Program-made: the position numbers and the translations under genes
The notes under the pieces: generated by a model
What the model was told of the DNA's origin: nothing
Seen by the model: the letters and a program-made list of their open reading frames with translations, nothing else
Database searches by the model: none
In this document: positions 6,448 through 31,609 of the stretch, in pieces
How positions within the stretch are numbered: position 1 is the stretch's first letter
Layout of the letters: every line of letters starts with the position of its first letter
DNA from: Propionibacterium ruminifibrarum
Lineage (GTDB): Bacteria > Actinomycetota > Actinomycetes > Propionibacteriales > Propionibacteriaceae
Assembly (NCBI RefSeq): GCF_900289195.1
Contig: NZ_OMOH01000010.1
Coordinates: 53,235 to 85,234, forward strand
Reading direction: 5' to 3'
Length of the DNA stretch: 32,000 bases

Positions 6448-8718
6448 TCAGTCGCGTTCGAGCCACTCGGCCGCGCTGAGCCGCTGTCCCCGGCGCAGCA
6501 TGTCGGCCGGCCCTGCGGGCAGGTTCTCAGCCGGTGTTCCGGCGAGTGTCTCGGCGATGACGCGGGCCCTGGTGATGACGTCGGCGTCATCAAGCACCCG
6601 GAGCAGCCGCAGGGAGCTGCGTGACCCCGACTGTTCCGCGCCGAGTACGTCGCCTTCCCGACGCTGTGCCAGGTCGAGTTCGGCCAGGACGAAGCCGTCC
6701 CGGGTCGCCGCGACGTCACGCAGGCGCTGGGCGGCAGGTGTCCGCGGATCGGTGGCGCTCAGCAGCAGGCAGATGCCCGGGTACCCGCCACGGCCGATGC
6801 GTCCGCGCAGCTGGTGCAGCTGACTGACCCCGAAACGGTCGGCGTCCAGGACGACCATGGCGCTGGCATTGGGCACGTCGACGCCCACCTCGATGATGGT
6901 GGTCGTCACGAGGACGTCGATCTCGCCTGCGATGAAGGACGCCATCGTCGCCGCCTTGGCCTCGTTGCCCTGCCGCCCGTGCAGGAGCCCCAGCCGCAGG
7001 CCCGCCAGTTCGTTGCCGGCGAGCCTGGCGTAGGTCTCCTCGGCGCCGGCGGTCTCCGGCGCGTCCTCAGCCCCGGCCGATGCTGGCCCGTCTGAGCCAC
7101 CGATGCGCGGGCAGACGACGAAGCCCTGGCGGCCGGCCCGGACCTCCTCGCGCAGCCGCGCCCAGACCCTGCCCGTCCAGGTCGGGTGCTCCGCGGTGAG
7201 GACCGCCGTGGTCTGCACGTCGGCGCGACCGCCGGGAAGGTCCTGGAGGGTGGAGACCTCGAGGTCGCCGAAGACGGTCATGGCGACCGACCTGGGGATC
7301 GGTGTCGCGGTGAGCACGAGTTCGTGGGGGCGCAGCCTGCTGCCGGCGGTCAGCCTGGCCCGCTGTTCGACGCCGAAGCGGTGCTGCTCGTCGATGACGA
7401 CGAGACCGAGCCCCGCGAAGCGGACGTCGTCTCCGAGCAGGGCGTGCGTGCCGACGACGATGCCCGCCTCGCCCGAGGCGATCCGGTCGAGGATCTCCCG
7501 GCGCCTGGCGGTGGGCACCGAGCCGGTGAGCAGTTCGACGCGGGTGGCGTGCTCGGGGGCTGCGAGGGTGCCGCCGGCGGCGAGGTCGCCCATGAGGGAG
7601 TCGACGGTGGCCGCGTGCTGGGTGGCGAGCACCTCCGTGGGGGCCAGCAGGACGGCCTGGCGCCCGGCGTCGACGGCGGCGAGCATGGCGCGCAGGGCGA
7701 CGACGGTCTTCCCGGAGCCGACCTCGCCCTGCAGCAGTCGCTGCATGGGCCGTTCGGAGGCCATGTCGGCTCCGATCTCGGCGCTGACCCGCTGCTGGGC
7801 GTCGGTGAGTTCGAAGGGGAGCCGGGCGTCGAAGGCCGCCAGGAGGCCGTCTGTCCGGGGGACGACGGCGGCCGCCTCGTGCGTGGCGGCCTCACGGCGC
7901 CGGTAGGCCATGGTGAGCTGCAGGCCGAGTGCCTCGTCGAACTTGAGGCGGCGCATGCCGGACTCGACGTCCTGCCTGCTGCGGGGCTGGTGGACCATGG
8001 TGAAGGCCTCGAGCAGGCCGGGCAGCTCCTCGCCGGAGCGGATCTGCTCGGGCAGCGGGTCGTCGATGCCGGTGAGCATGTCGAGGCCCATGGCGACGCA
8101 TTCGGCGATCTGCCAGGTCGGCAGGGCGGCCCGCGCCGGGTAGATGCCGATCACCTCGCCCCGGCTGACGACCTGGGCCATCTGGGTCTTCTTCTCGTCG
8201 GCGGCCCCGACGATGCGGCCGTCGCCGTCGAGCATGACGAAGTCGGGATGGCTCATCTGCAGCTCGCCCCGGAACTCGCCGATCTTGCCGACGAAGATGC
8301 CCCTGACCCCCATCGAGAGCTGGCGGCGCCAGTAGTCGACGAGGTGTTTCTTCCCGAAGAAGATGAGTTTGAGCTGCCCCCGCCCGTCCGTGAGCACCGC
8401 CTCGAGGCGCCAGCGCCGGGCGTCGCCCTTGAACGGCTGGGCGCCGACAAACTCGACCCCGGCCAGGACGGCGGCCCGCTCCCCCGGCAGGAGCGCGCTC
8501 AGGTCGCTGCGCTGGGTGCCGTAGAGGTAGTCGCGGGGCGTGTAGTGCATGAGGTCGTCGAGGGTGCGCACGCCGACCGCGGCGAGGGCCTTCGCCGTCC
8601 GCGCGCCGAACACCCCCGACAGCGGCTCGGACAGCCGCCGGTAGGCCCGGGTGCGGAACGGGCTCGCCACCTGGCCGGGACGTGCTCCCCGGCCTGCTGT
8701 TCTGGTCCCACTCACCAC
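6448..8718 (-). CDS. recG: ATP-dependent DNA helicase RecG
   Basis: 756 aa with an N-terminal wedge/OB region, Walker A GEVGSGKT, DEQH box VIDEQHRFGV, and helicase C motif QLHQLRGRIGRG. Confidence 0.95.
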   Translation of the reverse strand: MVSGTRTAGRGARPGQVASPFRTRAYRRLSEPLSGVFGARTAKALAAVGVRTLDDLMHYTPRDYLYGTQRSDLSALLPGERAAVLAGVEFVGAQPFKGDARRWRLEAVLTDGRGQLKLIFFGKKHLVDYWRRQLSMGVRGIFVGKIGEFRGELQMSHPDFVMLDGDGRIVGAADEKKTQMAQVVSRGEVIGIYPARAALPTWQIAECVAMGLDMLTGIDDPLPEQIRSGEELPGLLEAFTMVHQPRSRQDVESGMRRLKFDEALGLQLTMAYRRREAATHEAAAVVPRTDGLLAAFDARLPFELTDAQQRVSAEIGADMASERPMQRLLQGEVGSGKTVVALRAMLAAVDAGRQAVLLAPTEVLATQHAATVDSLMGDLAAGGTLAAPEHATRVELLTGSVPTARRREILDRIASGEAGIVVGTHALLGDDVRFAGLGLVVIDEQHRFGVEQRARLTAGSRLRPHELVLTATPIPRSVAMTVFGDLEVSTLQDLPGGRADVQTTAVLTAEHPTWTGRVWARLREEVRAGRQGFVVCPRIGGSDGPASAGAEDAPETAGAEETYARLAGNELAGLRLGLLHGRQGNEAKAATMASFIAGEIDVLVTTTIIEVGVDVPNASAMVVLDADRFGVSQLHQLRGRIGRGGYPGICLLLSATDPRTPAAQRLRDVAATRDGFVLAELDLAQRREGDVLGAEQSGSRSSLRLLRVLDDADVITRARVIAETLAGTPAENLPAGPADMLRRGQRLSAAEWLERD

Positions 8719-8725
8719 GTGTCCG

Positions 8726-8731
8726 AGACTA
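8726..8731 (-). promoter_or_regulatory. -10-like TAGTCT, 7 nt upstream of recG GTG
   Basis: Minus strand reads gcTAGTCTcggacacGTG. Confidence 0.5.
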
Positions 8732-8796
8732 GCGGGGCGGGCGGACAGTTCCCGGCGCCGACCTGGCCCGCGCCGTCAGGCGACGGCGGACAGGAC

Positions 8797-8826
8797 GAAG
8801 GGCCCGCTCATTAGAGCGGGCCCTTC
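8797..8826 (-). terminator. Hairpin downstream of rpmB
   Basis: GAAGGGCCCGCTC-ATTA-GAGCGGGCCCTTC, a 13-bp perfect stem 15 nt after the rpmB stop. No U-tract, which is common in actinobacteria. Confidence 0.6.
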
Positions 8827-8840
8827 GCAGAACCTGGGAC

Positions 8841-9026
8841 TCAGCGGCTGACCTTGCCGGCCTTCAGGCAGGAAGTGCAGACGTTCAGGCGCTTCGACGT
8901 GCCGTTGACGACGGCACGGACGCGCTGGATGTTGGGATTCCAACGACGATTCGTCTTCTTCTTCGACCACGGCACGTTGTGCCCGAAGCCGGGGCCCTTG
9001 CCGCAGATCTCGCACACGGCAGCCAT
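8841..9026 (-). CDS. rpmB: 50S ribosomal protein L28 (Cys-containing form)
   Basis: MAAVCEICGKGPGFGHNVPWSKKKTNRRWNPNIQ...CTSCLKAGKV. AAGGAG Shine-Dalgarno upstream. Confidence 0.93.
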   Translation of the reverse strand: MAAVCEICGKGPGFGHNVPWSKKKTNRRWNPNIQRVRAVVNGTSKRLNVCTSCLKAGKVSR

Positions 9027-9090
9027 GGCGACTCCTTGACCTCTTCGATGACAGTGAACTGCACCCGCGGGGGCGCAACTTGGTGATCAT

Positions 9091-9126
9091 ATCCCGCCGG
9101 GAAGGCGTTCCCCAAATCCCGCCGGG
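9091..9126. repeat. 11-bp direct repeat ATCCCGCCGGG x2 in the rpmB promoter region
   Basis: Copies at 9091-9101 and 9116-9126 (25-bp period) flank a small GGGAA/TTCCC hairpin. The proximal copy abuts a TATGAT -10 candidate (9086-9091, minus strand). Confidence 0.7.
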
Positions 9127-9132
9127 CCGGGC

Positions 9133-10818
9133 TCAGACGGCGATGACGACCGGGACGATCATCGGACGGCGACGGTAGGTGCTGGACACCCACTGGCCGA
9201 CCGTCCGGCGAACCACCTGCTGAAGGCGGTGTTCGTCGTCGACGCCCTCGGCGAGCGCCGCGTCGAGCGCCGCGGCGATCTTCGTCGTCACGTCGTCGAA
9301 GACGGTGGGGGCCTCGAGGAAGCCACGCGCCGAGACGTCCGGGCCGGCCACGACCTCGCCCTTGCGCAGGTCGACGGCGGCGACGATGGAGATGAAACCC
9401 TCCTCGCCGAGGATGCGCCGGTCGGTCAGGCTCGACTCGGAGACGTCGCCGACTGTCGAGCCGTCGACGAAGATGTACGAGGCGTCGACGCGGCCGACCG
9501 GCTTTGCGACCCCGTCGCGCAGGTCGACGACGTCGCCGTCGTGGGCGACGATGGCGCGTTCGCGCGGCACACCGGTGGCGACGGCCAGTTCGGCATTGGC
9601 GACGAGGTGGCGCTCCTCGCCGTGGATGGGCATCACGTTGCCGGGCTGGACGATGTTGTACAGGTAGAGCAGCTCCCCGGAGGCCGAGTGGCCCGAGACG
9701 TGCACGAAGGCGTTGCCGCGGTGCACGACCCTGGCCCCGAGCCGGGTCAGGCCGTTGACGACGCGGTAGACGGAGTTCTCGTTGCCGGGGATGAGGGAGC
9801 TGGCGAACAGCACGGTGTCGCCGGGGTTGATGCCGATGACCGGGTGGTCCCGGTTGGCGATCCGGCTCAGCGCCGCCAGGGGCTCGCCCTGCGAGCCCGT
9901 GCAGACCACCACGACCCTGTCGTCGGGGTAGTCGTTGAGCTGGGACAGCTCGATGAGGATGTCTCCGGGCACGTGCAGATAGCCGAGATCGCGGGCGACC
10001 GCCATGTTGCGGACCATGGAGCGCCCGACGTAGCAGACCTTCCGGCCGTGCCGGGCCGCCAGGTCGAGGATCTCCTGGACGCGGTGGACGTGGGAGGCGA
10101 AGCAGGCCACGACGAGTTTGCCGGTGGCCTCGGCGAAGACGCGTTCGAGGTTCGGCAGGATGTCGCGTTCCAGCGGCGTGAACCCCTTGACCTCGGCGTT
10201 CGTCGAGTCGGCCATGACCAGGTCGATGCCCTCGGCGCCGGCGCGGGCGAATCCGCGCAGGTCGGTGATCCGCCCGTCGAGGGGCAGCTGGTCCATCTTG
10301 AAGTCGCCGGTGTGCAGGACGGAACCGGCCGAGGTGCGGACGACCACGGCCAGGGCGTCCGGGATCGAGTGCGTGACGGCGAAGAACTCGAGCCCGAACT
10401 CGTCGACGTCGACCCGCTCGCCCTCGGCGACGGTGTGCAGCACGGCATCGCGCAGGCGGTGCTCCCGCAGCTTGGCCTCGACGAAGGCCAGGGTCAGGCG
10501 GCTCCCGTAGACGGGGATGTCCTGGCGCTGGCGCAGCAGATAGGGCACGCCGCCGATGTGGTCCTCGTGGCCGTGAGTGAGCACCAGGGCCACCACGTCG
10601 TCGAGGCGGTCGGCGAGGTAGTCCAGGCCGGGCAGGATGAGGTCGACGCCCGGCTGGCTCTCCTCGGGGAAGAGCACGCCGCAGTCGACGATGAGGATCT
10701 TCCCGTTGAGCTCGAAGCAGGTCATGTTGCGCCCCACGTCGCCCAGGCCGCCGAGCGGGATGACACGCAGGGTGTCGGGGTCCAGTGCGGGAGGAGTCTT
10801 CGAACCGTCATGTGTCAC
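9133..10818 (-). CDS. rnj: Ribonuclease J
   Basis: 561 aa with metallo-beta-lactamase motif LTHGHEDHIGG, a beta-CASP region and a C-terminal domain. GTG start. Confidence 0.92.
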   Translation of the reverse strand: MTHDGSKTPPALDPDTLRVIPLGGLGDVGRNMTCFELNGKILIVDCGVLFPEESQPGVDLILPGLDYLADRLDDVVALVLTHGHEDHIGGVPYLLRQRQDIPVYGSRLTLAFVEAKLREHRLRDAVLHTVAEGERVDVDEFGLEFFAVTHSIPDALAVVVRTSAGSVLHTGDFKMDQLPLDGRITDLRGFARAGAEGIDLVMADSTNAEVKGFTPLERDILPNLERVFAEATGKLVVACFASHVHRVQEILDLAARHGRKVCYVGRSMVRNMAVARDLGYLHVPGDILIELSQLNDYPDDRVVVVCTGSQGEPLAALSRIANRDHPVIGINPGDTVLFASSLIPGNENSVYRVVNGLTRLGARVVHRGNAFVHVSGHSASGELLYLYNIVQPGNVMPIHGEERHLVANAELAVATGVPRERAIVAHDGDVVDLRDGVAKPVGRVDASYIFVDGSTVGDVSESSLTDRRILGEEGFISIVAAVDLRKGEVVAGPDVSARGFLEAPTVFDDVTTKIAAALDAALAEGVDDEHRLQQVVRRTVGQWVSSTYRRRPMIVPVVIAV

Positions 10819-10824
10819 GGGCTC

Positions 10825-10830
10825 AGCCTA
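10825..10830 (-). promoter_or_regulatory. -10-like TAGGCT, 6 nt upstream of RNase J GTG
   Basis: Minus strand reads gcTAGGCTgagcccGTG. Confidence 0.5.
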
Positions 10831-10868
10831 GCGGTGCCGGCCGGCTGGGGCCGCCCGCGCCGCGGCCG

Positions 10869-10874
10869 TAGGCT
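10869..10874 (+). promoter_or_regulatory. -10-like TAGGCT, 7 nt upstream of GNAT GTG
   Basis: Plus strand reads cgTAGGCTgtgaaccGTG. Back-to-back with the RNase J box in a 63-bp divergent gap. Confidence 0.5.
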
Positions 10875-10881
10875 GTGAACC

Positions 10882-11439
10882 GTGAGCGAGCACCCGCACG
10901 ACGACGCCGCCCGGCGTCACGCCCATGGCCCGGAGCCGGGTTTCGCCCGGCTCGCCATGGCGGACGAGGCCGAACGCATCGCCGAGCTTCAGGCCGGGGC
11001 CTGGGCCAGGGCCGGGCTCGCCGCGCAGCTGCCCGATCCGGCCGCCATGTCCGCCGCGTGGCTGTCGGCGATCGTCGCTCCCCCGCTGGCGACCTACCGG
11101 GTGCTCGTCGCGACGGCCCAGGACCACCGGACGGTGCTCGGCTTCGCCGCCATCGGCCCCAGCGAGGACCCGGATGCCGACCCGACCGACGCGGTCGTCG
11201 GCGAGTTCGTCATCGGGCGGACCGGACGCGGGCACGGCTCGCGTCTGCTGAACGCCGTCGTCGACACGCTGAGGGCCGACGGCTTCGAACGCGCCACCTG
11301 GTGGGTGCCCACCACCGACGACGACCTGCGCGCCTTTCTCACCGGTTCCGGATGGGCCCCGGACGGCGCGCACCGCGAGATCGGCCCCGAGGACGGTTCG
11401 ACGAGCCTGCGCCAGGTGCGTCTGCACACCGCCATCTGA
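10882..11439 (+). CDS. GNAT-family N-acetyltransferase
   Basis: Acetyl-CoA loop GRTGRGHGSRLLNAVVDTLRADGFERA (R/Q-x-x-G-x-G/A). GTG start supported by a TAGGCT box 7 nt upstream. Confidence 0.7.
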   Translation: MSEHPHDDAARRHAHGPEPGFARLAMADEAERIAELQAGAWARAGLAAQLPDPAAMSAAWLSAIVAPPLATYRVLVATAQDHRTVLGFAAIGPSEDPDADPTDAVVGEFVIGRTGRGHGSRLLNAVVDTLRADGFERATWWVPTTDDDLRAFLTGSGWAPDGAHREIGPEDGSTSLRQVRLHTAI

Positions 11440-11549
11440 GGGCGACGACCGAGGACCGCGAGGTGGGCCGCGGCGCCGGTCATGGCTGTGGCCATCACCG
11501 CAACGCGGTGTTGCATTCAGTTGCGAACTGCTGCTTCTCGTGTTGCCTA

Positions 11550-11561
11550 ATGTCCGGACAT
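11550..11561. promoter_or_regulatory. Perfect 12-bp palindrome ATGTCCGGACAT in the long leader upstream of the MFS gene
   Basis: Read directly. Lies in a relatively AT-rich stretch together with the dyads GCAAC-GCGGT-GTTGC (11500-11514) and CAGTT-GCG-AACTG (11518-11530). Confidence 0.4.
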
Positions 11562-11819
11562 GTGTGCTAACGTCGTTCAGCGTTGTCCGAGAACACCGCA
11601 CATGTGATTCACCACGGCGCGATGTCCCCGGATCGAGACCACTGGCCCGCCGAGCGGCGGGCCGTTCTCCCGAGCAGCACGTCGCCGCCGTCTGCGCGGC
11701 CCTGGGCGAGTCGCTGTTCACCAAGCACACCGTCGCGCACCGGATCCGCACCGGGGCCATGCCCCGGGATCCGGTGCGCCCTCGCGTGTGACAAGCACGA
11801 AGAAAGAGTTGTTCGTCGA

Positions 11820-21318: not shown

Positions 21319-22062
21319 TCAGCGGGCGCGGCGCAGGCCGATGAAGAACTCGATCGTGCCGGCGGGCCCGGGCAGCCGGCTCGGCGCCTGCCAGAAGCAG
21401 TTCCAGCCCAGCCGGGTGGCCTCGTCGAGGACCTGGTGGACGGCCCATTCGCGGTCGGCCTCGCGGGTCACCACTCCCCCGGCCCCCAGCCGCTGGCGCC
21501 CCACCTCGAACTGGGGTTTGACCAGGAGCAGCGCCGTGGCCTCGGGGGTGAGGACGTTGAGGATGGGCGCGAGGACGAGGCGCAGCGAGATGAACGAGAC
21601 GTCCCCGACGGCCATGTCGACGGGTCGGGCGTCGACATGGCCGAGCGTGAGTTCGCGCAGGTTGACGCCCTGCAGGTCACGGACCCGCGGATCGGTGCGC
21701 AACTGCCGGGCGAGCTGGTCGTGGCCGACGTCGACCGCGTAGACCTGCCGTGCCCCGCGGGCCAGGAGCACCTGGGTGAACCCGCCGGTGGAGGCGCCGG
21801 CGTCGAGGACCCTGTCCGGCACCTGCACGCCGGACTCGTCGAGGGCACCGAGGAGTTTGTGGGCGGCCCGGGAGACCCACGGGTCGGTCTCGACGTGGAT
21901 CTGGTCGTCGGGGCCGACCGGCGTCGACGTCTTCGTGACGACGGCGCCGCCGACGCGCACGCGGCCGGACCGGATCAGCTCGGTTGCCTGTGAGCGCGAC
22001 CGGGCCAGGCCGCGGGCCGGGAGCGCCTGGTCGAGCCGGCTCCGGGCGGGGCCCTCGCTCAT
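21319..22062 (-). CDS. tlyA: TlyA-family rRNA (cytidine-2'-O)-methyltransferase
   Basis: S4-like N-terminus (RLDQALPARGLARSRSQATELIRSGRVRV) plus FtsJ-type SAM motif LDAGASTGGFTQVLL. Confidence 0.9.
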   Translation of the reverse strand: MSEGPARSRLDQALPARGLARSRSQATELIRSGRVRVGGAVVTKTSTPVGPDDQIHVETDPWVSRAAHKLLGALDESGVQVPDRVLDAGASTGGFTQVLLARGARQVYAVDVGHDQLARQLRTDPRVRDLQGVNLRELTLGHVDARPVDMAVGDVSFISLRLVLAPILNVLTPEATALLLVKPQFEVGRQRLGAGGVVTREADREWAVHQVLDEATRLGWNCFWQAPSRLPGPAGTIEFFIGLRRAR

Positions 22063-22307
22063 GCCTGCCCGCCGGGTCTGGGCAGCCGGCCGCGGGTGCC
22101 GTCGAGGATCTCGGTGAGGCCCTGCTGGGCGGCGGTCAGTTTCTCCAGGCGTTCGCCGACGGGCAGGGCGTCGAGGTCGCCCAGCTCGGCGAGCACCTCG
22201 TCGACGAGCCGGTTCCCGGTCGCCGGGGGCTGCCGGTCGGCGGCGCTCCCGGGTTCGGGCGCCCCGTCGCTCTGGTCGGCGGGGGTGTTCTTCGGGAGCT
22301 CACTCAT
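22059..22307 (-). CDS. Small acidic hypothetical protein, translationally coupled to tlyA
   Basis: 82-aa ORF with a 4-nt overlap with the tlyA start and a TAGGCT box 7 nt upstream of its ATG. Helical C-terminal part (LVDEVLAELGDLDALPVGERLEKLTAAQQGL). No recognisable motif. Confidence 0.6.
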   Translation of the reverse strand: MSELPKNTPADQSDGAPEPGSAADRQPPATGNRLVDEVLAELGDLDALPVGERLEKLTAAQQGLTEILDGTRGRLPRPGGQA

Positions 22308-22314
22308 GGCGCCG

Positions 22315-22320
22315 AGCCTA
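22315..22320 (-). promoter_or_regulatory. -10-like TAGGCT, 7 nt upstream of small-ORF ATG
   Basis: Minus strand reads ccTAGGCTcggcgccATG. Confidence 0.5.
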
Positions 22321-22368
22321 GGCCACGCGGCGGGAGGGGCTCAAAGGCCGGTGGGGTCCGGCTGCCGG

Positions 22369-22896
22369 TCAGCCGAGGCCCCGGGACCGGACGAAGGCCT
22401 CGGCCCGGTCGAGGCGCTCGGCGCCGAAGACCTGGAGCAGGTCGGCGATCTCCGCGCTGAGCGGGCGGACGAGTTCGGCCGCCCGCAGGTAGTCCGAGGC
22501 CGAGGCGGTGGCGCGGAAGAGTTCCTGCACCTGGCTGGCCGTCGTCCGGTGCAGGTGGGTGGTCAGTGTCGTGGCGGAGATCTCGGTGGCGTTGTCGGCC
22601 TCCAGCTGCCCGAGTGCGGCGGCGACGGTGAGGCGCCCCTCGCGCACGTCGGAGGCCAGCGTGACCATGCGGGTCAGGCGGGCGGCGGCGACCGGGTTCG
22701 CGATCTTGATGCGGCGGGCGTTGATGAGCTGGGAGAGCATGGGGGCCGAGATGCCCAGCAGCCGGGCGAGCCCGGCCTGGTTCAGCCCCAGCGTCGCCCC
22801 GCACTGGCCGAGTACGTCGGCCAGTGGCGCCCCGTAGAGGGCGGCCTGCTGGGCGCGGACCTCCTCCTGCGTGCGGACTTCCTCGGGACCGGCCAT
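22369..22896 (-). CDS. XRE-type helix-turn-helix DNA-binding protein with an uncharacterised helical C-terminal domain
   Basis: HTH segment GATLGLNQAGLARLLGISAPMLSQLINARR (aa 33-62). 175 aa. ATG preceded by TATGAT + 6 nt. Confidence 0.75.
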   Translation of the reverse strand: MAGPEEVRTQEEVRAQQAALYGAPLADVLGQCGATLGLNQAGLARLLGISAPMLSQLINARRIKIANPVAAARLTRMVTLASDVREGRLTVAAALGQLEADNATEISATTLTTHLHRTTASQVQELFRATASASDYLRAAELVRPLSAEIADLLQVFGAERLDRAEAFVRSRGLG

Positions 22897-22902
22897 GCGG
22901 TC

Positions 22903-22908
22903 ATCATA
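22903..22908 (-). promoter_or_regulatory. -10-like TATGAT, 6 nt upstream of HTH-gene ATG
   Basis: Minus strand reads gcTATGATgaccgcATG. Confidence 0.5.
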
Positions 22909-22911
22909 GCG

Positions 22912-22930
22912 GCAATTTGCTGCAAAGTGC
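22912..22930. promoter_or_regulatory. Imperfect dyad GCAATTTGC-T-GCAAAGTGC in the HTH gene promoter
   Basis: 8/9 arm complementarity in an AT-rich island within GC-rich DNA, directly upstream of the TATGAT -10. Shares the 9-mer GCAAAGTGC with 24256-24264. Confidence 0.5.
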
Positions 22931-22959
22931 AGCGGGGCGTTCGCTCGTGGCGGCGGATC

Positions 22960-24186
22960 TCACAGGGCCAGGATGATGGCGGCCACGATGCACAGCACGC
23001 CGCCGGCGACCACCAGGATCGGGGCGATGCGCGCCGCACCGGATCTCGTGCCGGAAGCCGAGTGGGCGGGGACGGTTGCCGGGGTCTGTGCCGCTCCCGC
23101 CGGGGGCCCGCCCATGGGCGGCATCGCCTCGGGCGCCGGGCCCGGCGGAACGGGCGCGGGAGCAGGGGGGTAGGCGGGCGCGGGCATGGGCTCCGGCGTG
23201 GGGCCCGTGACCCACTGGGCAGGCACGCCGACCTGCCGCCCCTGGTCGGATGGCGGCTCGACCTCGGCCCTGGCCGGGGGCGGGGAGTAGAACTCGTCCA
23301 GGCCGCCAGGGCTCTGGGGGCTCGGCGGGCCCGGGTCCTGGACGCCGGCCCCGATGGGGCCCTGGGGCCCCCATCCCGCCGGCAGGGGCCCGATCTGGTC
23401 GAAGACCTCGACGGGTTCACCGGTCGAGGTCTCGGGGATGACGGCCGCGAGCTCCTGCCAGGCCTGGGCGGCGCTGGGGACCCTGGCCGGGAGCTCGGCG
23501 AGCAGGTGCGCCATGACCTCCCCCAGCGGGGTGCCGGCGAACCGGGCGGGCACCCGGGCCGCCTCTTCCTGGTCGGGACGCTCCCCGGTGAGCAGTTCGA
23601 TGAGAACGGTGCCCACCGCGTAGAGGTCCTGGGCGGGTTCGGGGTCGGCGCCGTAGCGTGCCTCGGGCGACATGTAGCCGGGTGTGCCGATCACCTGCGT
23701 CACCCGGGTCAGGCGGGGTTCGGCAATGGGGGCGGCGGTGCCGAAGTCGGACAGGACGATGTCGGGCACGACGCCGGGGCGCAGCAGGATGTTGGCCGGT
23801 TTCACGTCGCGGTGCACGAGCCCGGCCGAGTGGATGACGTGGAGGGCCTCGAGCAACTGGCCGATGGCCGGCAGCACCCAGGCCTGCGGCAGCGGGCCGT
23901 AGTCGCGCAGCAGGCCCGCCGCCGAACCGCCGTGCACCAGCGGCATGGCGAAGATGATGCGGTCGTCCTCTCCCGCCCAGCCGCTCGGCGCGAGGACGTG
24001 CGGGTGCTCGAAGCGCCAGCGGGCCTCGCGCATGAATCGCAGCAGCGAGGTCGAGTCGGACTGGCGGAGCACCTTCCCGGCACGGTAGCCGCCGTCCCGG
24101 TGGTCCCAGACGCGCCAGACGTCACCCATGCCACCCGTCCCGAGCAGGTCGACGAGTTCATAGCGTCCGGCGAAGATCTCTCCCAT
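22960..24186 (-). CDS. Hanks-type Ser/Thr protein kinase, C-terminally tail-anchored, no extracellular domain
   Basis: G-loop LGTGGMGDVW, Lys in YRAGKVL, HRDVKPANILL, SDFG, GTPGYMSPE, then a ~120-aa Pro-rich linker and terminal TM IAPILVVAGGVLCIVAAIILAL-stop. Start ambiguous: ATG 24186 (MGEIFAGRYEL) or in-frame ATG 24240. The track extension to 24663 is antisense to the vWA gene. Confidence 0.88.
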   Translation of the reverse strand: MGEIFAGRYELVDLLGTGGMGDVWRVWDHRDGGYRAGKVLRQSDSTSLLRFMREARWRFEHPHVLAPSGWAGEDDRIIFAMPLVHGGSAAGLLRDYGPLPQAWVLPAIGQLLEALHVIHSAGLVHRDVKPANILLRPGVVPDIVLSDFGTAAPIAEPRLTRVTQVIGTPGYMSPEARYGADPEPAQDLYAVGTVLIELLTGERPDQEEAARVPARFAGTPLGEVMAHLLAELPARVPSAAQAWQELAAVIPETSTGEPVEVFDQIGPLPAGWGPQGPIGAGVQDPGPPSPQSPGGLDEFYSPPPARAEVEPPSDQGRQVGVPAQWVTGPTPEPMPAPAYPPAPAPVPPGPAPEAMPPMGGPPAGAAQTPATVPAHSASGTRSGAARIAPILVVAGGVLCIVAAIILAL

Positions 24187-24245
24187 AACCGGTTCAGTAT
24201 CCCATAGCGCCGGTAGGGTTGACAGGTCCTGACCCAACATGAGAG

Positions 24246-24272
24246 CTTTGCAATAGCAAAGTGCTATTTGCA
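24246..24272. promoter_or_regulatory. Overlapping dyads in the kinase/vWA divergent intergenic region
   Basis: Perfect CTTTGC-AATA-GCAAAG (24246-24261), plus TGCAATAGCA-AAG-TGCTATTTGCA (24249-24272, 1-nt indel). Three TTTGC/GCAAA half sites. Contains GCAAAGTGC at 24256-24264. Confidence 0.5.
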
Positions 24273-24304
24273 GTTCTCTGTTGCACCCACCCGAAGGAAG
24301 AAGA

Positions 24305-26194
24305 ATGAACCCCAGACTGCGACATCCCCTCGTCGCACTCACCGCGCTGGCGATGATCGCCGCCCCGGCGGCCACGACGCTTCCGGTGGCGGTCGCCGAC
24401 CCGGGCACGACGAGCATGATGCTCGTCCTCGACGCCTCGGGTTCGATGGCGGCCGACGACGGCACCGGCACCCCCAAGATCGACTCGGCCCGCAAGTCGC
24501 TGACCTCCCTGGTTAACTCGCTGCCCACCGAGGCGAAGGTCGGCATGCGCGTGCTCGGCGCCACGGTCGAGGGCACCGAGCCGATGCCCGACGAGGCCTG
24601 CGACGACACCCAGCGGGTCGTCGACCTCGCCCAGAACAACCAGGCCGAGCTCATCTCGGCCATCGGCCACTACTCGCCCTACGGCTGGACGCCCATCCCC
24701 AAGGCGCTCGAGGAGGCCGGTAAGGACCTGGGCAATGACGGCAAGCGCTCCATCGTCCTCGTCTCGGACGGCGAGTCCACCTGCGGCGATCCCTGCCCCA
24801 CCGCCGAGTCCCTGGCCTCCTCCGGCGTCGACCTGACGATCGACGTCGTGGGCCTGTCGGTCGACGCGACGACGCGCGAGCAGCTGCAGTGCATCGCCGA
24901 CAAGGGCAAGGGCAAGTACTACGACGCCGACAACACCGAGGACCTCACCAAGGCCCTGCAGCAGTCGACCACCGACCGCGACGTGCGCTCCTTCGACTAC
25001 GACGGCACCGCCGTCACCGGCACCTCCAACGCCGGCAGCGCCCCCGAGCTCACCCCGGGCTACTGGAAGGACACCATCCCGGCCACCGGCAACGAGTCCG
25101 ACACCCTCACCCGCTACTACGTGGTGAAGCGCAGCGCCAAGCAGACCGACATCAGCGCCTCGGTACTCGTGACGAGCACGGCCCACGAGCAGGAACTCGA
25201 GTACACGAAGATCATGAGCACACAGCTGCTCACCGGTAACAAGACGTGCACGTCGGGCGACAGCGACTACGCGGGTTCGACCTACCCCGAGCCCTACTAC
25301 CTCTCCGGCGCCATGGCGACCGGCCACGACTACAGCGACGACTGCAACGACGCCGAGCAGCTGATCCTCAAGGTCGACCTGGAGAACTTCGACCTCAGCA
25401 GTGACCGCACACTCCAGCTCAAGGTCGGCGAGTGGCCGCGCGTCGGTGACGTCAACGAGCAGGCCTCGGCGGCCGAGACCGCCGACGAGGGCGACTTCCA
25501 GGACACGACGGGCAAGTTCGGCGGCAGCCCCACCCAGATCACCGGCGGCAGCTCGCTCGCCTCGGCGACGGGCATCGAGCAGAACAAGCTCTACCAGGCC
25601 ACCATCGTGCCCGGCGAGGTGCAGACCTTCAGCGTCCCCGTCGGTTGGGGCCAGTCGGTCTCGAGCAGCGTCAGTGTCATGCCCACCGGCGGCGAACAGG
25701 GGAAGAAACTCGACGAGCTCGACAAGAGCAACAACGAGCCGCTCATGAGTACGAACATCATCACCGGCGCGGGCAACAAGCGGGACAAGTCGACCTGCGA
25801 GGTCAGGAGCGATGGCTGCACCGCCGAGATGTCACAGCTCACCAGACCTGCGACCTATGACATGGAAAGCTCCAGTTCGAGCTCCCAGGCCGGCGCCTAC
25901 ACGGTGACCGTCGCCATGTCCGACGAGGAGGCCCTGGCCGGCTCGGAGTTCTCCTACCAGCTCTACGTGCAGACGGTCGGCGAGATCCTGCCGGCGCCGA
26001 ACTACCAGACCTACGAGGAGTCGCTCACCGCCTCGCCGTCGCCCTCCGGCTCGTCGGCGACGGCCTCCAGCAGCGCGTCCGGCTCGTCCGGGTCCTCGCG
26101 CCACTCCCTGCTGGCCGCGGCCCTGGGCAGCGTCGGCGTGCTGCTCCTCGCCGGCGGCGGCGTCGGCATCTGGTACACCCGCCGGCACCGCTGA
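24305..26194 (+). CDS. Exported von Willebrand factor A (vWA) domain protein with C-terminal membrane anchor
   Basis: ATG 24305 with GAAGGAAG Shine-Dalgarno. Sec-type signal MNPRLRHPLVALTALAMIAAPAATTLPVAVA. MIDAS residues DASGSM...GWTPI...VSDGES. About 350 aa of unassigned Ser/Thr/Asp-rich sequence, a Ser-rich stalk, TM LLAAALGSVGVLLLAGGGVGIW, and tail YTRRHR. Confidence 0.85.
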   Translation: MNPRLRHPLVALTALAMIAAPAATTLPVAVADPGTTSMMLVLDASGSMAADDGTGTPKIDSARKSLTSLVNSLPTEAKVGMRVLGATVEGTEPMPDEACDDTQRVVDLAQNNQAELISAIGHYSPYGWTPIPKALEEAGKDLGNDGKRSIVLVSDGESTCGDPCPTAESLASSGVDLTIDVVGLSVDATTREQLQCIADKGKGKYYDADNTEDLTKALQQSTTDRDVRSFDYDGTAVTGTSNAGSAPELTPGYWKDTIPATGNESDTLTRYYVVKRSAKQTDISASVLVTSTAHEQELEYTKIMSTQLLTGNKTCTSGDSDYAGSTYPEPYYLSGAMATGHDYSDDCNDAEQLILKVDLENFDLSSDRTLQLKVGEWPRVGDVNEQASAAETADEGDFQDTTGKFGGSPTQITGGSSLASATGIEQNKLYQATIVPGEVQTFSVPVGWGQSVSSSVSVMPTGGEQGKKLDELDKSNNEPLMSTNIITGAGNKRDKSTCEVRSDGCTAEMSQLTRPATYDMESSSSSSQAGAYTVTVAMSDEEALAGSEFSYQLYVQTVGEILPAPNYQTYEESLTASPSPSGSSATASSSASGSSGSSRHSLLAAALGSVGVLLLAGGGVGIWYTRRHR

Positions 26195-26222
26195 GCGATG
26201 CCACGCGACAACTGAACACACC

Positions 26223-26861
26223 TCAGACCCGAGGCCTGGCCGGCTCCTCCTCGTCGGCCAGGCCTCGCGCATGCAGGGCCTCGCCCATCGCCAGGGCACG
26301 GCCCACGGCGCCGATGACGATCGGCGTGACGAGCCGCCAGCCGGCGCGCTCGACCCCGCGCGCACGGGCGGCGTCGCGCACCTGGCGGACGCTGAGCAGC
26401 AGGCCGGGCACCGCGTTCCACATGATGGCGATGGTCAGGGCGAACTTCTCGGGTTTGGCCCCGAGGAAGCGGAACGGGCGGGCCAGGGCGGCCATGGCGT
26501 CCATGAGCACCGAGGCCGGTGTCGTGCCGGTGAGCGTGCGCGCCAGCCACAGGCACGAGAGCATGCCGGCGCAGAAGATGACGCCGTTGCGCCAGTTGAG
26601 GAAGAGACTGTCGTAGACGAGGATGAGCGCGTTCATGACGATGACGCCCAGCATCGGGTTGAGTTCGCGCGGGGGGCGCCCGGCACCGAGCACGAGGACG
26701 AGCCCGGACACGACGGCGGCCGCCACCGAGACCGGCCAGCGGCCGGCGAAGAAGGGCACGACGCCGAGTACGACGAGCAGCAGGTACTTCACCGCCACCG
26801 GCGTCCGGTGCATGAGCGAGTGGCCGGCGCGGTAGACGCCCAGGTAGTTCTCGAGCCTCAC
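26223..26861 (-). CDS. bioN: ECF transporter transmembrane (T) component, BioN/EcfT/CbiQ family
   Basis: 212-aa polytopic protein with C-terminal Ala-Arg-Gly motifs (DAARARGVE, ALHARGL). 4-nt overlap with the upstream ATPase gene. Confidence 0.85.
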   Translation of the reverse strand: MRLENYLGVYRAGHSLMHRTPVAVKYLLLVVLGVVPFFAGRWPVSVAAAVVSGLVLVLGAGRPPRELNPMLGVIVMNALILVYDSLFLNWRNGVIFCAGMLSCLWLARTLTGTTPASVLMDAMAALARPFRFLGAKPEKFALTIAIMWNAVPGLLLSVRQVRDAARARGVERAGWRLVTPIVIGAVGRALAMGEALHARGLADEEEPARPRV

Positions 26862-28424: not shown

Positions 28425-29441
28425 TCAGTGCAGCTGGTCGAGCGCCTCGATCACTGGGCCGGGGTCAGCGCCGGACCCGCGGTCCGCGGCGCGCCAGACC
28501 AGCTGCAGCGCGGCCCAGAGCGCGTCGAGCTGGCTCTCGCGCTCAGTGCCGTGGCCGCTGATCTGCACCCGGGCGTCGTCGATCCGGGCGACTGCCGCCC
28601 CGCAGCGCGCGGTGTCGTCGCTGATCTCGACGGTGCGGGCCGGTTTCAGCAGGGCCCTGATGTCGTAGCCCACATGGGTGGGGCGCCACGAGGGATCGGC
28701 GGCGAACAGGTCCCGCATGCCGTGGGCGCCGGTGAACACGAACAGCGAGTCCATCCCGGCGTTGAAGGCGCCCTCGATGTCGGTGTCGAGCCGGTCGCCG
28801 ACGAAGATCGGGTGCTCGGCGGACAGCCGGCGGACGGTCTCGCGCAGCAGGGGCGGGAACGGTTTGCCCGCCATCTCGGGCTCGGCCCCCGGCTCCAGGC
28901 AGACCCTCAGGGTGGCGATCTGGGTGCCCAGACCCGGTTCGAGTCCGAGATCGGTCGGGCGGGTCATGTCGGGGTTGGTGGCATACCAGCGGGCACCGCC
29001 CTGCACGGCGTGCGCGGCGTCGGTGACACGCGGCCAAGTCATCTCGGGATCGTAGCCCTGGATGACGGCGACCGGCCCGTCCTGGCTGCTCCACACCGGG
29101 GTGAGCCCGACGGCTTCGATCTCGGCGGCCAGCGCCGGGGTGCCGCAGATGAGCACCTTGGCCGCTGGCGGCAGTGCCTCGGCGAGCATGCGCGCCGAGG
29201 CCTGGGCGCTCGTCACGACGTCGGCGAGCCCGCAGTCGATGCCCAGTCTCGTCAGGTGGTCGGCGACGGTCTGGGGGGTGCGCGCGGCGTTGTTGGTGAC
29301 GAAACCCACGGTGACGCCCTCGGCTCGCAGCCCCTCGACCCCCTCCGGCGCGCCCTCGACGGATCGCGGGCCTAGGTAGATGACGCCGTCCAGGTCGAAA
29401 AGCGCCGCGTCGTACCGGCCGCACAGCATGTCCCTGGTCAC
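28425..29441 (-). CDS. HAD-superfamily hydrolase, subfamily IIA (NagD/Rv1692-like phosphatase)
   Basis: Motif I LFDLDGVIY, FVTNN, motif IV VGDRLDTDIEGA, plus an extra C-terminal ~80 aa. Confidence 0.88.
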   Translation of the reverse strand: MTRDMLCGRYDAALFDLDGVIYLGPRSVEGAPEGVEGLRAEGVTVGFVTNNAARTPQTVADHLTRLGIDCGLADVVTSAQASARMLAEALPPAAKVLICGTPALAAEIEAVGLTPVWSSQDGPVAVIQGYDPEMTWPRVTDAAHAVQGGARWYATNPDMTRPTDLGLEPGLGTQIATLRVCLEPGAEPEMAGKPFPPLLRETVRRLSAEHPIFVGDRLDTDIEGAFNAGMDSLFVFTGAHGMRDLFAADPSWRPTHVGYDIRALLKPARTVEISDDTARCGAAVARIDDARVQISGHGTERESQLDALWAALQLVWRAADRGSGADPGPVIEALDQLH

Positions 29442-31609
29442 TCGTCCTCCTCGGTCTCGTCAGTCTGGAGATCCTGCGGCTCGGGCACGGTCTCGATCTC
29501 AACGGTGGCGGGGCCGGCCTCGGGTTCGGCTGCTGCCTTGGGCTCGTCGGGGGTGCCCCCAGCGTCCCATCCTGCTACCGGGGCACCCGCACCACCCGGT
29601 GCCTCATCGGCCAACCCCGGTTCCGGCTCCACGGGGACGTCGGAGTGGAACGTGATGGCGCCCTCGGGCAGCTCATCGCCATCTGCATCTGCCTCGCCGT
29701 CCGCCGGCTCCTGCTCGGGTTCGGGCTCCTGCTCCTCGACGTAGAGGTCCTCGTCGGTCTCGTCGATCGAGGCCCGGAAGTCGTCGGGTACCTCGGCCCC
29801 CAGGCTCTCCAGGCGCTCGGCGATGTCGAGGCTGTGCGCCTTGTCGAGCCGTCCCGCCGCCATGAACCACGTGATGGCGCCGCCGGTGTCCCCGCCGGCG
29901 GCGAGCAGGTCCGCGTAGGCGTACCGGAGTCTGGCCTGCGATGCGGCCTTGCCGATCTTGCTCTCGATGGCGCTGCGGAGCACGCGGAGGGCCTCGTCGT
30001 CTTGGCCCATGTCGTGTCGCAGCCCCGCCTCGACGAGGATCAGTTCGACGCGCTGGGTGACGCCCAGACGCGCCTCGTGGCCCTGGCGGATGGTGCGCAG
30101 CGCGTGGTCATGGCGGCCGATGGCCCGCTCGCAGTCTGCGATGACGGGCAGGTACTCGTCGTTGCCGGTCATGCGGGCCACGGCACGGTATTCGGTGAGT
30201 GCGGTCGCGTAGTCCTCCGCCGCGTAGGCGGTCTCAGCCGCCGCCTCGCGGACGATGGGCAGCCTGGCGGCCCGACGCCGGGCCGCCTGGGCGTGCCGGT
30301 TGGCCAGCTCCGGGTCCTCCTCGATCAGCTCGCCGGCGGCGATGAGATGGGCCATCACCTCACGGGCGAGCTCCTTCGGCAGACCACGGAGCTCGGCGCG
30401 CACTGGCGCCGACAGCAGACGGTCGTCGAAGTCGAGGCTGACCTCCGGTTCGTCCGCGGGACGCTCCAGCCCGGGGGCAGGCACCCGGGCGTCCTGGCGC
30501 GCACGCGCATCGTCATGCCCGCTGTCACGACGGCCGTCCCACTGCCGACGGTCGGAACGAGCCCCCCGCCGGTCGGTGCGGGCATTGTCGCCCCGGTCAC
30601 GGCCGGTGCCCCACTGCCTGCGGCCAGAGCGTTCACCGCGTTCGTCCCCATGCCGGTCGGTGCGGCCGTTGCCGCCCCGGTCACGACCGGTGCCCCACTG
30701 CCTGCGGCCAGAGCGCTCACCGCGTTCGTCCCCATGCCGGTCGGTGCGGCCGTTGCCGCCCCGGTCACGACCGCTGCCCCACTGCCTGCGGCCAGAGCGG
30801 CCATCACGGTCATCTGCACGACGGTCGCGTCGACCGTCGTCGTGCCAGGAACGGTCTCCCCGGCCGCGGCCGTCCGAGCTGTTGGAGAACTCTCGTTTCC
30901 CGCCCCGGTCGGCTCCGTCGCGCGGCCGGCCATCGTCGTACCAGCGACGGTCGCCCCGGTCACGGCCACCGCGCTGGCCGCTGTCCCGCTCGTCACGACG
31001 ACGGTCGTCACGGCGCGAGTCATCGCGGCGGTTCCCACCACGCTGGGTCCAACCATCGCGAGTGCGCCCTCCTCGCTCCGCTCGGCGATCGTCACCGGCC
31101 CAGCGACGCTCTGTGCGCCCAGGACGGCGATCGCCCCAGGCGCTCCGTTCGCCGCGCTCCTGACGGTCGTTCCAGCCGCCGCGGTTCTCGCGGCGTTCGC
31201 CCGCATCCCAGCGGCGCCCCGTGCTCTCGCCGGCCCGGTTCTGGCTGGGGCGCCGTCCACGGTCGGACCAGGAGACGGGGCCTCGACGCTCTCGCCGGCC
31301 CTCACCCGCACCTGTCGCACGGCCTCGATCGTTGCTGTACCGGCTGTCCCAGCCGTTGGCACCCTCGCGGGCTGAACCCGTACCGCTCTCACGGCTGTCC
31401 CAGCCGGCACGCCGGGAATCGCGGCCCCCACGCGGTGCTGAGCCATCGCGGCTCCGGCCTGTGCCGGCCCCGCGGCCACGCCATGTGTCGCGTCCGTTGG
31501 AGCGCCGATCGGAGGAACGCTCCCCCCGGCCGGTCTGAGGCCGGGTGCGTCGGCCGTCTCGCCCTCGGGAGGGGCCTCGCGAGCCCGAGTGATCCGATGA
31601 ATTGTCCAT
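29438..31609 (-). CDS. TPR-like repeat protein with ~390-aa Arg/Gly/Asp/Trp-rich disordered N-terminus and acidic C-terminal tail
   Basis: 723-aa ORF. The helical-repeat core (aa ~400-600) has TPR-like A/L/Y periodicity (AAETAYAAEDYATALTEYRAVARM...). 4-nt overlap with the HAD gene start. GGAG upstream of ATG 31609. Confidence 0.75.
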   Translation of the reverse strand: MDNSSDHSGSRGPSRGRDGRRTRPQTGRGERSSDRRSNGRDTWRGRGAGTGRSRDGSAPRGGRDSRRAGWDSRESGTGSAREGANGWDSRYSNDRGRATGAGEGRRERRGPVSWSDRGRRPSQNRAGESTGRRWDAGERRENRGGWNDRQERGERSAWGDRRPGRTERRWAGDDRRAERGGRTRDGWTQRGGNRRDDSRRDDRRRDERDSGQRGGRDRGDRRWYDDGRPRDGADRGGKREFSNSSDGRGRGDRSWHDDGRRDRRADDRDGRSGRRQWGSGRDRGGNGRTDRHGDERGERSGRRQWGTGRDRGGNGRTDRHGDERGERSGRRQWGTGRDRGDNARTDRRGARSDRRQWDGRRDSGHDDARARQDARVPAPGLERPADEPEVSLDFDDRLLSAPVRAELRGLPKELAREVMAHLIAAGELIEEDPELANRHAQAARRRAARLPIVREAAAETAYAAEDYATALTEYRAVARMTGNDEYLPVIADCERAIGRHDHALRTIRQGHEARLGVTQRVELILVEAGLRHDMGQDDEALRVLRSAIESKIGKAASQARLRYAYADLLAAGGDTGGAITWFMAAGRLDKAHSLDIAERLESLGAEVPDDFRASIDETDEDLYVEEQEPEPEQEPADGEADADGDELPEGAITFHSDVPVEPEPGLADEAPGGAGAPVAGWDAGGTPDEPKAAAEPEAGPATVEIETVPEPQDLQTDETEEDE
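30605..30799. repeat. In-frame 84-bp tandem repeat (2 full copies + 27-nt partial) inside the TPR/IDR gene
   Basis: Copies 30605-30688 and 30689-30772 differ at one base (T/C at repeat position 28). A third copy at 30773-30799 matches 26/27 and then diverges. A degenerate, shorter copy lies at ~30530-30604. The unit encodes the 28-aa sequence RSGRRQWGTGRDRGGNGRTDRHGDERGE. Confidence 0.9.

Follow-up and report, generated by a model that had tools for sequence, protein, structure and literature searches.

Several described systems bear on how a kinase that has no sensor domain of its own may receive a signal. BceS-BceAB and LiaS-LiaF are intramembrane-sensing histidine kinases with accessory sensors, and among the Hanks-type Ser/Thr kinases PknL of Mycobacterium tuberculosis is a protein with essentially no ectodomain that is encoded beside a small DNA-binding substrate, Rv2175c, itself presumably not of the XRE type; PknL is not known to have an exported partner protein. 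In the region of Propionibacterium ruminifibrarum contig NZ_OMOH01000010.1 analysed here (the window, 32,000 nucleotides), the open reading frame (ORF) map and domain scans identify positions 22369-26194 as three genes, which encode an XRE-type helix-turn-helix (HTH) regulator, a Hanks kinase and, divergently transcribed, an exported vWA protein. This trio is apparently an undescribed signalling unit that extends from Propionibacterium to Streptomyces, and we put at about 50% the probability that it forms one signalling module, composed of an operator-binding repressor, a kinase that phosphorylates the repressor and an ectoprotein that provides the input of the kinase. Literature searches on the module, its operator and the Streptomyces coelicolor (SCO) gene numbers gave no description of it.

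Other known proteins share parts of this arrangement. PpkA of Pseudomonas aeruginosa combines a Hanks kinase, a transmembrane (TM) segment and an extracytoplasmic vWA domain in one chain (PMC1262709; PMC3224232), and the S. coelicolor kinases PkaB/SCO2973 and SCO3860 are anchored by a C-terminal TM helix alone (Craney et al. 2011, PMC3087755). The ternary systems of Kaur et al. 2020 consist of vWA, MoxR and VMAP components and need the MoxR AAA+ ATPase (PMC7159879), and the Esr threat-sensing pathway has, apart from MoxR, a sensor of the beta-propeller type, a PP2C and an FHA protein as output (PMC13622651).

The proteins of the window were located by tblastn in 80 loci around vWA homologues, one genome being taken per species. 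All three genes lie within a few kb in 59 of these loci; five others contain HTH and vWA genes (three being cut by a contig end), one contains kinase and vWA genes, and in 15 the vWA gene has neither partner. An earlier reading, made by a model from the letters of this DNA and called here the sequence-only reading, had proposed the trio as a signalling unit, and the linkage of the orthologues in many genomes agrees with this, as does the fact that the HTH gene stands outside the tlyA block, since among the 80 loci the tlyA and bioYMN context is confined to Propionibacterium (L001, L010). With H, V and K denoting the HTH, vWA and kinase genes and the signs their strands, six gene orders occur: H- V+ K- (29 loci), H- V+ K+ (13), K- H- V+ (8), H- K- V+ (4, including the window), V+ K- H- (4) and V+ H- K- (1). 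The commonest layout is a divergent HTH-vWA pair (55/80 loci) with the kinase elsewhere in the cluster, so that while the co-occurrence expected by the sequence-only reading was found, the orientation seen in the window proved to be a minority arrangement (4/59).

The taxa recovered with the vWA protein as anchor are Propionibacterium, Tessaracoccus, Luteococcus, Microlunatus, Kribbella, Nocardioides, Aeromicrobium, Mumia, Actinopolymorpha, Jiangellaceae, Amnibacterium and Flexivirga, to which searching anchored on the HTH protein adds Glutamicibacter (divergent HTH and vWA genes, then a gene for a 417-aa protein, then the kinase), Janibacter (vWA, PfkB, HTH and kinase in this order, the last two overlapping by 8 nt) and Streptomyces. 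In many metagenome contigs the HTH gene is followed by the kinase gene in an operon-like manner (gaps of 7-11 nt), with an ectoprotein gene convergent downstream. When neighbouring ORFs were clustered across genera, the HTH and kinase genes were the sole conserved neighbours, and FHA or PP2C genes were absent from the annotated module loci. Judged by sequence comparison, the three genes are a real module conserved across several actinobacterial orders rather than a chance insertion. That they depend on one another is also suggested by Propionibacterium acidifaciens DSM 21887 (L010, about 8400-11720), in which the whole trio looks decayed: the vWA gene is broken up over five frame segments, a deletion has removed the intergenic region with the 5' ends of both the kinase and the vWA gene, and the HTH gene is frameshifted. 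Of the flanking genes, tlyA, nadK and bioN each match in one frame, and the others are matched once and over their full length. Other P. acidifaciens records hold an apparently intact HTH protein of 159 aa (P0125).

The link between the regulator and the ectoprotein gene is a predicted palindromic operator with the family consensus TTTGC-N4-GCAAA. The copy in the window, TTTGCAATAGCAAA, is exact and stands upstream of both divergent genes, 45 bp from the vWA ATG and 61 bp from the kinase ATG; it is the sole match with one mismatch or fewer in all 32 kb. Such a site precedes the vWA gene in 56 of the 64 loci that contain the HTH gene (40 exact, 16 with one mismatch), and none of the 16 HTH-less loci has a site with fewer than two mismatches in this position. 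The remaining 1.5 Mb of flanking DNA contain one exact and six one-mismatch sites, of which three, the exact one among them, fall between a kinase gene and an HTH gene, shortly before the start of the latter. At the place that corresponds to the 63-nt gap of the window, Luteococcus (L004) has an exact and Tessaracoccus (L002) a one-mismatch N4 operator. In other genera the palindrome usually occurs in two to three copies, 20-130 bp upstream of the vWA start, and in Kribbella it directly follows a TTGACA -35 hexamer. The operator is also present in Glutamicibacter and Janibacter, and it precedes the vWA gene even in loci in which the HTH gene is not adjacent to it (L018, L034 and L079 of Mumia; L071). 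Control of the ectoprotein gene by the HTH protein as a predicted autoregulated repressor is therefore well supported by these patterns.

Since the divergent region of the window holds a single exact operator, this site is placed so that the vWA gene and the kinase-HTH operon can both be under its control, and it probably serves both transcription units. The sequence-only reading had reported a motif shared by both promoters; the part that ties the HTH protein to the vWA promoter stands, but the motif in the kinase-HTH gap, TTTGCAGCAAA, has its half-sites at N1 and not at N4 spacing. A consensus sigma-70 scan of 22300-26400 gave no full promoter match, and promoter positions are therefore not asserted.

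As to the proteins themselves, most of what the sequence-only reading had claimed was confirmed. The placement of the trio agrees with the ORF map, the distance from kinase stop to HTH start being exactly 63 nt; the kinase has the full set of Hanks motifs it was said to have, with nothing beyond its TM helix; and the signal peptide, metal ion-dependent adhesion site (MIDAS), stalk, TM helix and YTRRHR tail attributed to the vWA protein were recovered by alignment, AlphaFold2 (AF2) modelling and inspection of the sequence. The profile matches it anticipated were obtained above cut-off for Pkinase, VWA and VWA_2 but not for the regulator, whose weak match to Pfam HTH_3 (E=1e-3, 19.5 bits) stays under the gathering score of 23 bits. 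Some homologues of the regulator do have precomputed HTH_31 or HTH_3 matches.

The AF2 model of the HTH protein is all-helical, with a mean confidence score (pLDDT) of 91.8, and consists of an XRE-like HTH (residues 25-58), long helices (68-109), a disordered Thr-rich linker (109-118) and a four-helix C-terminal domain (119-171). Its top Foldseek matches are the XRE-type proteins ClgR, C.BclI and lambda cI (probability 0.94-0.99, E about 0.1-0.3); the C-terminal domain was without a Foldseek match, and a PDB profile search with the HTH alignment gave weak HTH matches together with spurious matches of this domain to sulerythrin. The motif LGISAPMLSQL..R.K.GNP is invariant in the homologues. Position 109, at the edge of the disordered linker and within an otherwise variable stretch, is Thr in 77% and Ser or Thr in 84% of 116 homologues. 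The family is very widespread in Streptomyces, with >1000 clusters. More distant relatives, some of which match the N-terminal ~90 residues alone, are found without a kinase or an ectoprotein in Streptoalloteichus hindustanus (L084, 8001-8483, between ribF and a LigT-like gene and upstream of rpsO) and in metagenome loci L139-L168, and the HTH superfamily is therefore broader than the module.

The kinase matches Pfam Pkinase (PF00069) with 115.4 bits against a cut-off of 31.7, and its top PDB matches are StkP, PknA, PknE and PknB. It contains GxGxxG, AxK, the alphaC Glu, HRDxKxxN, DFG and (S/A)PE as well as an activation-loop Thr, which is conserved within the motif ePRxTr, and from these motifs, kept in at least 95% (some in at least 70%) of 56 orthologues, it is predicted to be catalytically intact. 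Between the kinase domain and the C-terminal TM helix lie a conserved EVFDQ..LP..W motif and, after it, a Pro-rich linker. With no N-terminal signal sequence and a single TM helix predicted at the extreme C-terminus, the protein is of the tail-anchored type. Forty-eight orthologues terminate 0-8 residues past the helix, seven more are alike with helices below the hydropathy threshold, and four are truncated or aberrant; linker length varies, which brings the total to between about 300 and 546 aa. The kinase domains of the module in genome loci are 46-64% identical to that of the window, compared with 36% for an unrelated neighbouring Ser/Thr protein kinase in L033, and this identity together with the conserved catalytic motifs supports the predicted orthology of the module kinases across loci.

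In the ectoprotein, the vWA domain scores 41.6 bits with VWA (cut-off 23.8) and 34.9 with VWA_2 (cut-off 27), and the MIDAS motif D-x-S-x-S...T...D (D44, S46, S48, T130 and D156 in alignment numbering), for which metal binding is predicted, is invariant in 20 homologues, as are six Cys residues. The ~350 aa first left unassigned fold as two beta-sandwich domains according to AF2 and Foldseek. The top Foldseek matches are a structural-genomics vWA (4fx5), adhesins, ANTXR2 and jelly-roll or CUB-like ectodomains, and among vWA structures BatB and the LapA vWA are matched as well. When the beta-sandwich region and the Streptomyces partner described below were compared with Pfam at E<=10, a chance PilA4 match alone was obtained, and no family covers the region; an exhaustive search returned 207 representative clusters, which fall into two length classes, with and without vWA. 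A PPC- or collagen-binding-like identity was suggested by a repeated PGE..Y/F..V...GQ pattern, but no search supports it. Every homologue of the partner ends in this manner, with a single C-terminal TM helix followed by a tail that is short and basic.

One relative (P0454, 1120 aa; L171, 1596-4958, on metagenome contig Logan SRR27109252) has the unit of vWA, double beta-sandwich, stalk and TM helix fused, on the cytoplasmic side, to a linker rich in Pro that leads to a BTAD-containing, SARP-like regulator, and its gene adjoins a Replic_Relax (relaxase) gene. By analogy, this protein resembles a ToxR-like one-component version of the module.

A version of the module that lacks the vWA domain was found in Streptomyces. 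On the chromosome L169 an HTH gene near gyrA/gyrB is followed by a tail-anchored kinase, and downstream, on the opposite strand, by the gene for a 470-aa protein with a signal peptide, two beta-sandwiches, a stalk, a TM helix and a basic tail but no vWA; the beta-sandwiches are homologous to residues ~231-465 of the window protein. The tail of this kinase, ...VAVPVLLLALACFAVGFWALTQIQS, is almost equal to that printed for SCO3860, ...VALPVLLLALACYAVGFWALTRI (PMC3087755), and because of this near match SCO3860 is probably a family member, SCO3859/SCO3860 then probably being the HTH and kinase members of the module in S. coelicolor, beside a vWA-less partner. Such partners also occur in Streptomyces sp. 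T-3 and in six metagenome loci first taken for bare HTH-kinase pairs, and Glutamicibacter carries one besides its vWA protein. The universal triad therefore combines an XRE regulator with a tail-anchored kinase and with a single-pass ectoprotein that has the double beta-sandwich, and the vWA is an N-terminal addition in Propionibacteriales, Micrococcales and Jiangellales. The sequence-only reading had centred on the vWA ectodomain as possible sensor, which has to be revised, the conserved part being the double beta-sandwich with its TM helix. In every Streptomyces-type locus with a vWA-less partner a relaxed site, TTYGC-N4-GCRAA, lies 30-85 bp upstream of the HTH start, and there is no operator in front of the partner gene.

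Some further observations concern the composition of individual clusters. Two ectoproteins, one bearing the vWA and the other a paralogue in which the double beta-sandwich and the TM helix are present without it, are encoded in one cluster in some genomes of Glutamicibacter (L081, 4675-5928), Mumia (L018, 12055-13053; L034; L079) and Nocardioides (L075, 12436-12945). An ABC ATPase gene and a gene of the HAD family, with 31-33% identity to the HAD of the window, lie 3-6 kb from the module in most Kribbella loci (for example L016, 4216-7405), recalling the HAD and bioYMN neighbours of the trio in the window; this may be genus-level synteny, residual regional synteny or coincidence. In Janibacter (L086, 2502-4929) genes for a VWA_CoxE protein and a MoxR-like AAA ATPase stand immediately beside the module vWA gene, an arrangement not seen in other genera. 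A second, divergent copy of the triad in Streptomyces sp. T-3 (L088, 1848-5116) is found in a variable region, where its neighbours are genes for OLD-TOPRIM and UvrD-helicase proteins (Gabija-like) as well as a Prim-Pol fragment.

From these observations the following mechanism may be proposed. The XRE-type protein would be a dimeric repressor that binds TTYGC-N4-GCRAA before its own transcription unit and, in the vWA-type loci, the window included, also before the ectoprotein gene; this step is well supported. The tail-anchored kinase, which has no ectodomain, would control the repressor by Thr phosphorylation, most likely of Thr109, and operator occupancy would change as a result; this step is suggested because the two genes form a tight, often operon-like pair, because the kinase is intact and has an activation-loop Thr, and because a Ser or Thr is conserved at position 109. 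The missing extracellular input may be supplied by the ectoprotein, which is the weakest step: its ligand- or metal-dependent clustering would gather kinases through contacts of Gly/Ala-rich TM helices, and this gathering would trigger trans-autophosphorylation of the activation loop at the Thr in ePRxTr. The operator also standing before the ectoprotein gene, the sensor would at the same time be an output, and the circuit would form a feedback loop. Both HTH phosphorylation and TM signalling between ectoprotein and kinase are steps that we infer, in part by analogy with other systems.

In favour of the ectoprotein as input, the kinase stays membrane-tethered without having an ectodomain, and the partner that invariably accompanies it has almost no cytoplasmic part. 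The Streptomyces-type partner is linked although no operator precedes its gene, and regulation by the HTH protein therefore cannot be the sole tie; the P0454 fusion implies that the ectodomain can serve as input of a membrane-bound regulator, and PpkA provides a Hanks kinase that has an extracytoplasmic vWA sensor in its own chain. A more far-reaching formulation, which we offer as tentative, is that of a split receptor Ser/Thr kinase, in which a detachable ectoprotein sensor, a double beta-sandwich that in many lineages carries a MIDAS vWA domain on top, would activate the tail-anchored kinase purely via TM-TM contacts and the kinase would phosphorylate the XRE repressor of the sensor gene, giving integrin-like outside-in feedback from Streptomyces to Propionibacterium.

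The alternative in which the ectoprotein is an output only has the kinase sensing the state of the membrane or envelope, or another protein, and phosphorylating the HTH repressor, so that a surface adhesin or ligand-binding protein is expressed without any contact between ectoprotein and kinase. It would account for operators placed directly before the vWA gene and overlapping the likely promoter, for the prevalence of the divergent HTH-vWA pairing (55/80), for the two loci that retain HTH and vWA genes without a nearby kinase, and for a vWA plus beta-sandwich architecture like that of the adhesins or receptors SpaC, LapA (vWA) and ANTXR2. We nevertheless consider it rather unlikely, given that the Streptomyces-type partner, without vWA and without operator, is invariably linked to the HTH and kinase genes, that P0454 uses the ectodomain as input of a membrane-bound regulator, and that the conserved tether of a kinase with zero ectodomain and the near-absent cytoplasmic portion of its partner would be left unexplained. 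A different substrate for the kinase, either the pathway of the ectoprotein (export, anchoring or turnover) or unrelated cytoplasmic targets, with the HTH protein as a mere repressor of the local cluster, seems more improbable still: the module is indeed without an FHA or other phospho-reader and the operator by itself would explain co-regulation, but HTH and kinase are the tightest pair (8-nt overlap in Janibacter, 7-11-nt gaps in metagenome loci), the Ser or Thr at the edge of the disordered linker is conserved (84%), and the ectoprotein tail is too short and too variable for a substrate.

An anti-phage or conflict function, in which a kinase-based abortive or defence module would work with a vWA partner much as vWA-MoxR ternary or Esr-like systems do, is very improbable in our view. 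The PD-T4-6 and mad6 kinase models of PADLOC match the kinase, one extra Streptomyces copy stands beside OLD-TOPRIM and UvrD genes, and the SARP fusion adjoins a relaxase gene; yet the PADLOC kinase matches are generic, that of the HTH protein is marginal (LmuB, E=0.0088) and the vWA protein has none, MoxR, FHA, PP2C and effector domains are not conserved in the neighbourhood, the contexts are core chromosomal (in Streptomyces near gyrA/gyrB, with >1000 HTH clusters), and the vWA protein is exported with conserved cysteines. Because the PADLOC scan gave generic kinase matches alone, the defence reading was set aside, in line with the sequence-only reading, which had judged such a role unlikely. 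That reading had also described the systems of Kaur et al. as vWA-kinase systems with PP2C and FHA partners, which is mistaken, these being vWA-MoxR-VMAP systems (PMC7159879).

A number of observations weigh against the single signalling module that we prefer. Hanks kinases that lack a sensor are often anchored in the membrane, which by itself does not call for a dedicated partner (PMC3087755), and strict tail-anchoring is not universal in the family, the kinase tails past the TM helix having 90 aa in Janibacter and 25 aa in Glutamicibacter. Two loci with full flanks (L041, L080) have HTH and vWA genes but no kinase within 10 kb, and L030 has kinase and vWA genes without HTH. The counts are not phylogenetically independent, since about a third of the 80 loci are Kribbella. 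With regard to the operator, which is a predicted one, its assignment to the HTH protein follows from co-occurrence; four HTH-containing loci are without a recognisable site, three of them in Nocardioides (L042, L044, L045), and the kinase-HTH gap of the window was searched for an N4 operator, which is absent. The SARP fusion is known from a single metagenomic contig, and among the best 150 of the 207 representative ectodomain relatives no kinase-ectodomain fusion was found, the SARP/BTAD fusion being the one fusion encountered.

The coordinates of all features are collected in Table 1. Pfam identifies the flanks of the trio as TlyA, NadK and RecN on one side and BioN, BioM, BioY and a HAD-family protein on the other, and the closest genome is that of Propionibacterium australiense, whose vWA protein is 92% identical. 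Two further ORFs of the window may be mentioned. The 82-aa ORF directly upstream of tlyA is kept in P. australiense (79%) and P. acidifaciens (64%), and it has no Pfam or NCBIfam match. The 723-aa ORF, also without a Pfam match, has an Arg/Gly/Asp-rich, highly repetitive N-terminal half and holds an 84-bp tandem repeat; its P. australiense homologue is 65% identical across the C-terminal part.

Table 1. Features of the trio and of neighbouring ORFs, in positions of the window.
Feature	Position	Strand	Details and basis
82-aa ORF	22059..22307	-	
XRE-type HTH regulator	22369..22896	-	175 aa; ORF map, Pfam, AF2 model, Foldseek
Kinase-HTH gap	22897..22959	-	63 nt; sequence
TATGAT, -10-like hexamer	22903..22908		6 nt before HTH ATG
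N1-spaced operator half-sites TTTGCAGCAAA	22916..22926		TTTGC-A-GCAAA, in the kinase-HTH gap
Tail-anchored Hanks Ser/Thr kinase	22960..24186	-	408 aa, start ATG 24186 (MGEIFAGRY...); ORF map, Pfam, PDB matches, orthologue alignment
Kinase TM helix	22963..23031	-	aa ~386-408; C-terminus ...RIAPILVVAGGVLCIVAAIILAL, zero residues beyond the helix
Kinase domain	23377..24186	-	about aa 1-270
Divergent control region, kinase/vWA	24187..24304	.	118 bp; sequence
TTGACA hexamer	24219..24224		within the divergent region
Operator TTTGCAATAGCAAA	24247..24260	.	family consensus TTTGC-N4-GCAAA
Extra TTTGC half-site	24267..24271		
Ribosome-binding site GAAGGAAG	24293..24300		within the divergent region, before the vWA start
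Exported single-pass ectoprotein (vWA)	24305..26194	+	629 aa, start ATG 24305; Pfam, alignment, AF2, Foldseek
Sec-type signal peptide	~24305..24397	+	
vWA/MIDAS domain	~24413..24979	+	
Beta-sandwich 1	~25019..25441	+	
Beta-sandwich 2	~25559..25981	+	
Ser-rich disordered stalk	~26018..26104	+	
Ectoprotein TM helix	~26105..26173	+	
6-aa tail	26174..26191	+	YTRRHR
723-aa ORF	29438..31609	-	
84-bp tandem repeat	30568..30799		2.8 copies, 95% identical; within the 723-aa ORF

How Hanks kinases without a sensor domain receive their signals is a question for many actinobacterial kinases, for which the module is a compact and widely conserved test case, offering a putative sensor, a putative substrate in which a phospho-site can be predicted and a predicted operator that is sharply defined, and being present in genetically tractable Streptomyces. 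It also gives a regulatory context to an uncharacterised small ectodomain family (207 representative clusters) and to an HTH family with >1000 Streptomyces clusters.

When the module is set beside the known systems, the kinases of Craney et al. have the same tail-anchoring as the module kinase, in a paper that covers membrane targeting and proposes no partner genes, operator or function (PMC3087755). The vWA-MoxR-VMAP and Esr systems share with the module an actinobacterial vWA and Ser/Thr kinase signalling to a transcriptional output, but in Esr an export signal of the vWA is not described, whereas the vWA of the module is exported. A MoxR AAA+ ATPase is found neither in the window trio nor as a conserved neighbour, the Janibacter AAA and VWA_CoxE pair not being conserved elsewhere, and the beta-propeller sensor, PP2C and FHA protein of Esr are likewise not conserved with the module. 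In the threonine phosphorylation pathway of the H1 type VI secretion system, PpkA is likewise a membrane Hanks kinase with a vWA as extracytoplasmic input, and it is probably activated by sensor-driven dimerisation (PMC1262709; PMC3224232). PpkA, however, outputs to the FHA protein Fha1 and has a dedicated PP2C, PppA, whereas the output of the module is likely an XRE repressor; the kinase and the vWA ectodomain of the module are two single-pass proteins whose genes lie on opposite strands, FHA and PP2C are unlinked, and the conserved core of the ectodomain is the beta-sandwich pair and not the vWA.

PknL/Rv2175c would be similar to the module in architecture. The integrin and ANTXR receptors offer an analogy: they combine a MIDAS vWA ectodomain and domains of the Ig-like or beta-sandwich type with a single TM helix and a short cytoplasmic tail, and they signal via non-covalently associated kinases; ANTXR2 is among the top Foldseek matches of the ectoprotein, but common descent is not evident beyond the vWA fold and the association with the kinase is hypothetical in the module. 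BceS-BceAB and LiaS-LiaF differ in using a His-Asp phosphorelay, unrelated proteins and an OmpR/NarL-type instead of an XRE regulator, but in them too a kinase without ectodomain takes its input from a separate membrane partner whose gene is a target of the pathway, and it is these intramembrane-sensing histidine kinases with accessory sensors that the proposed logic of the module, by analogy, most resembles.

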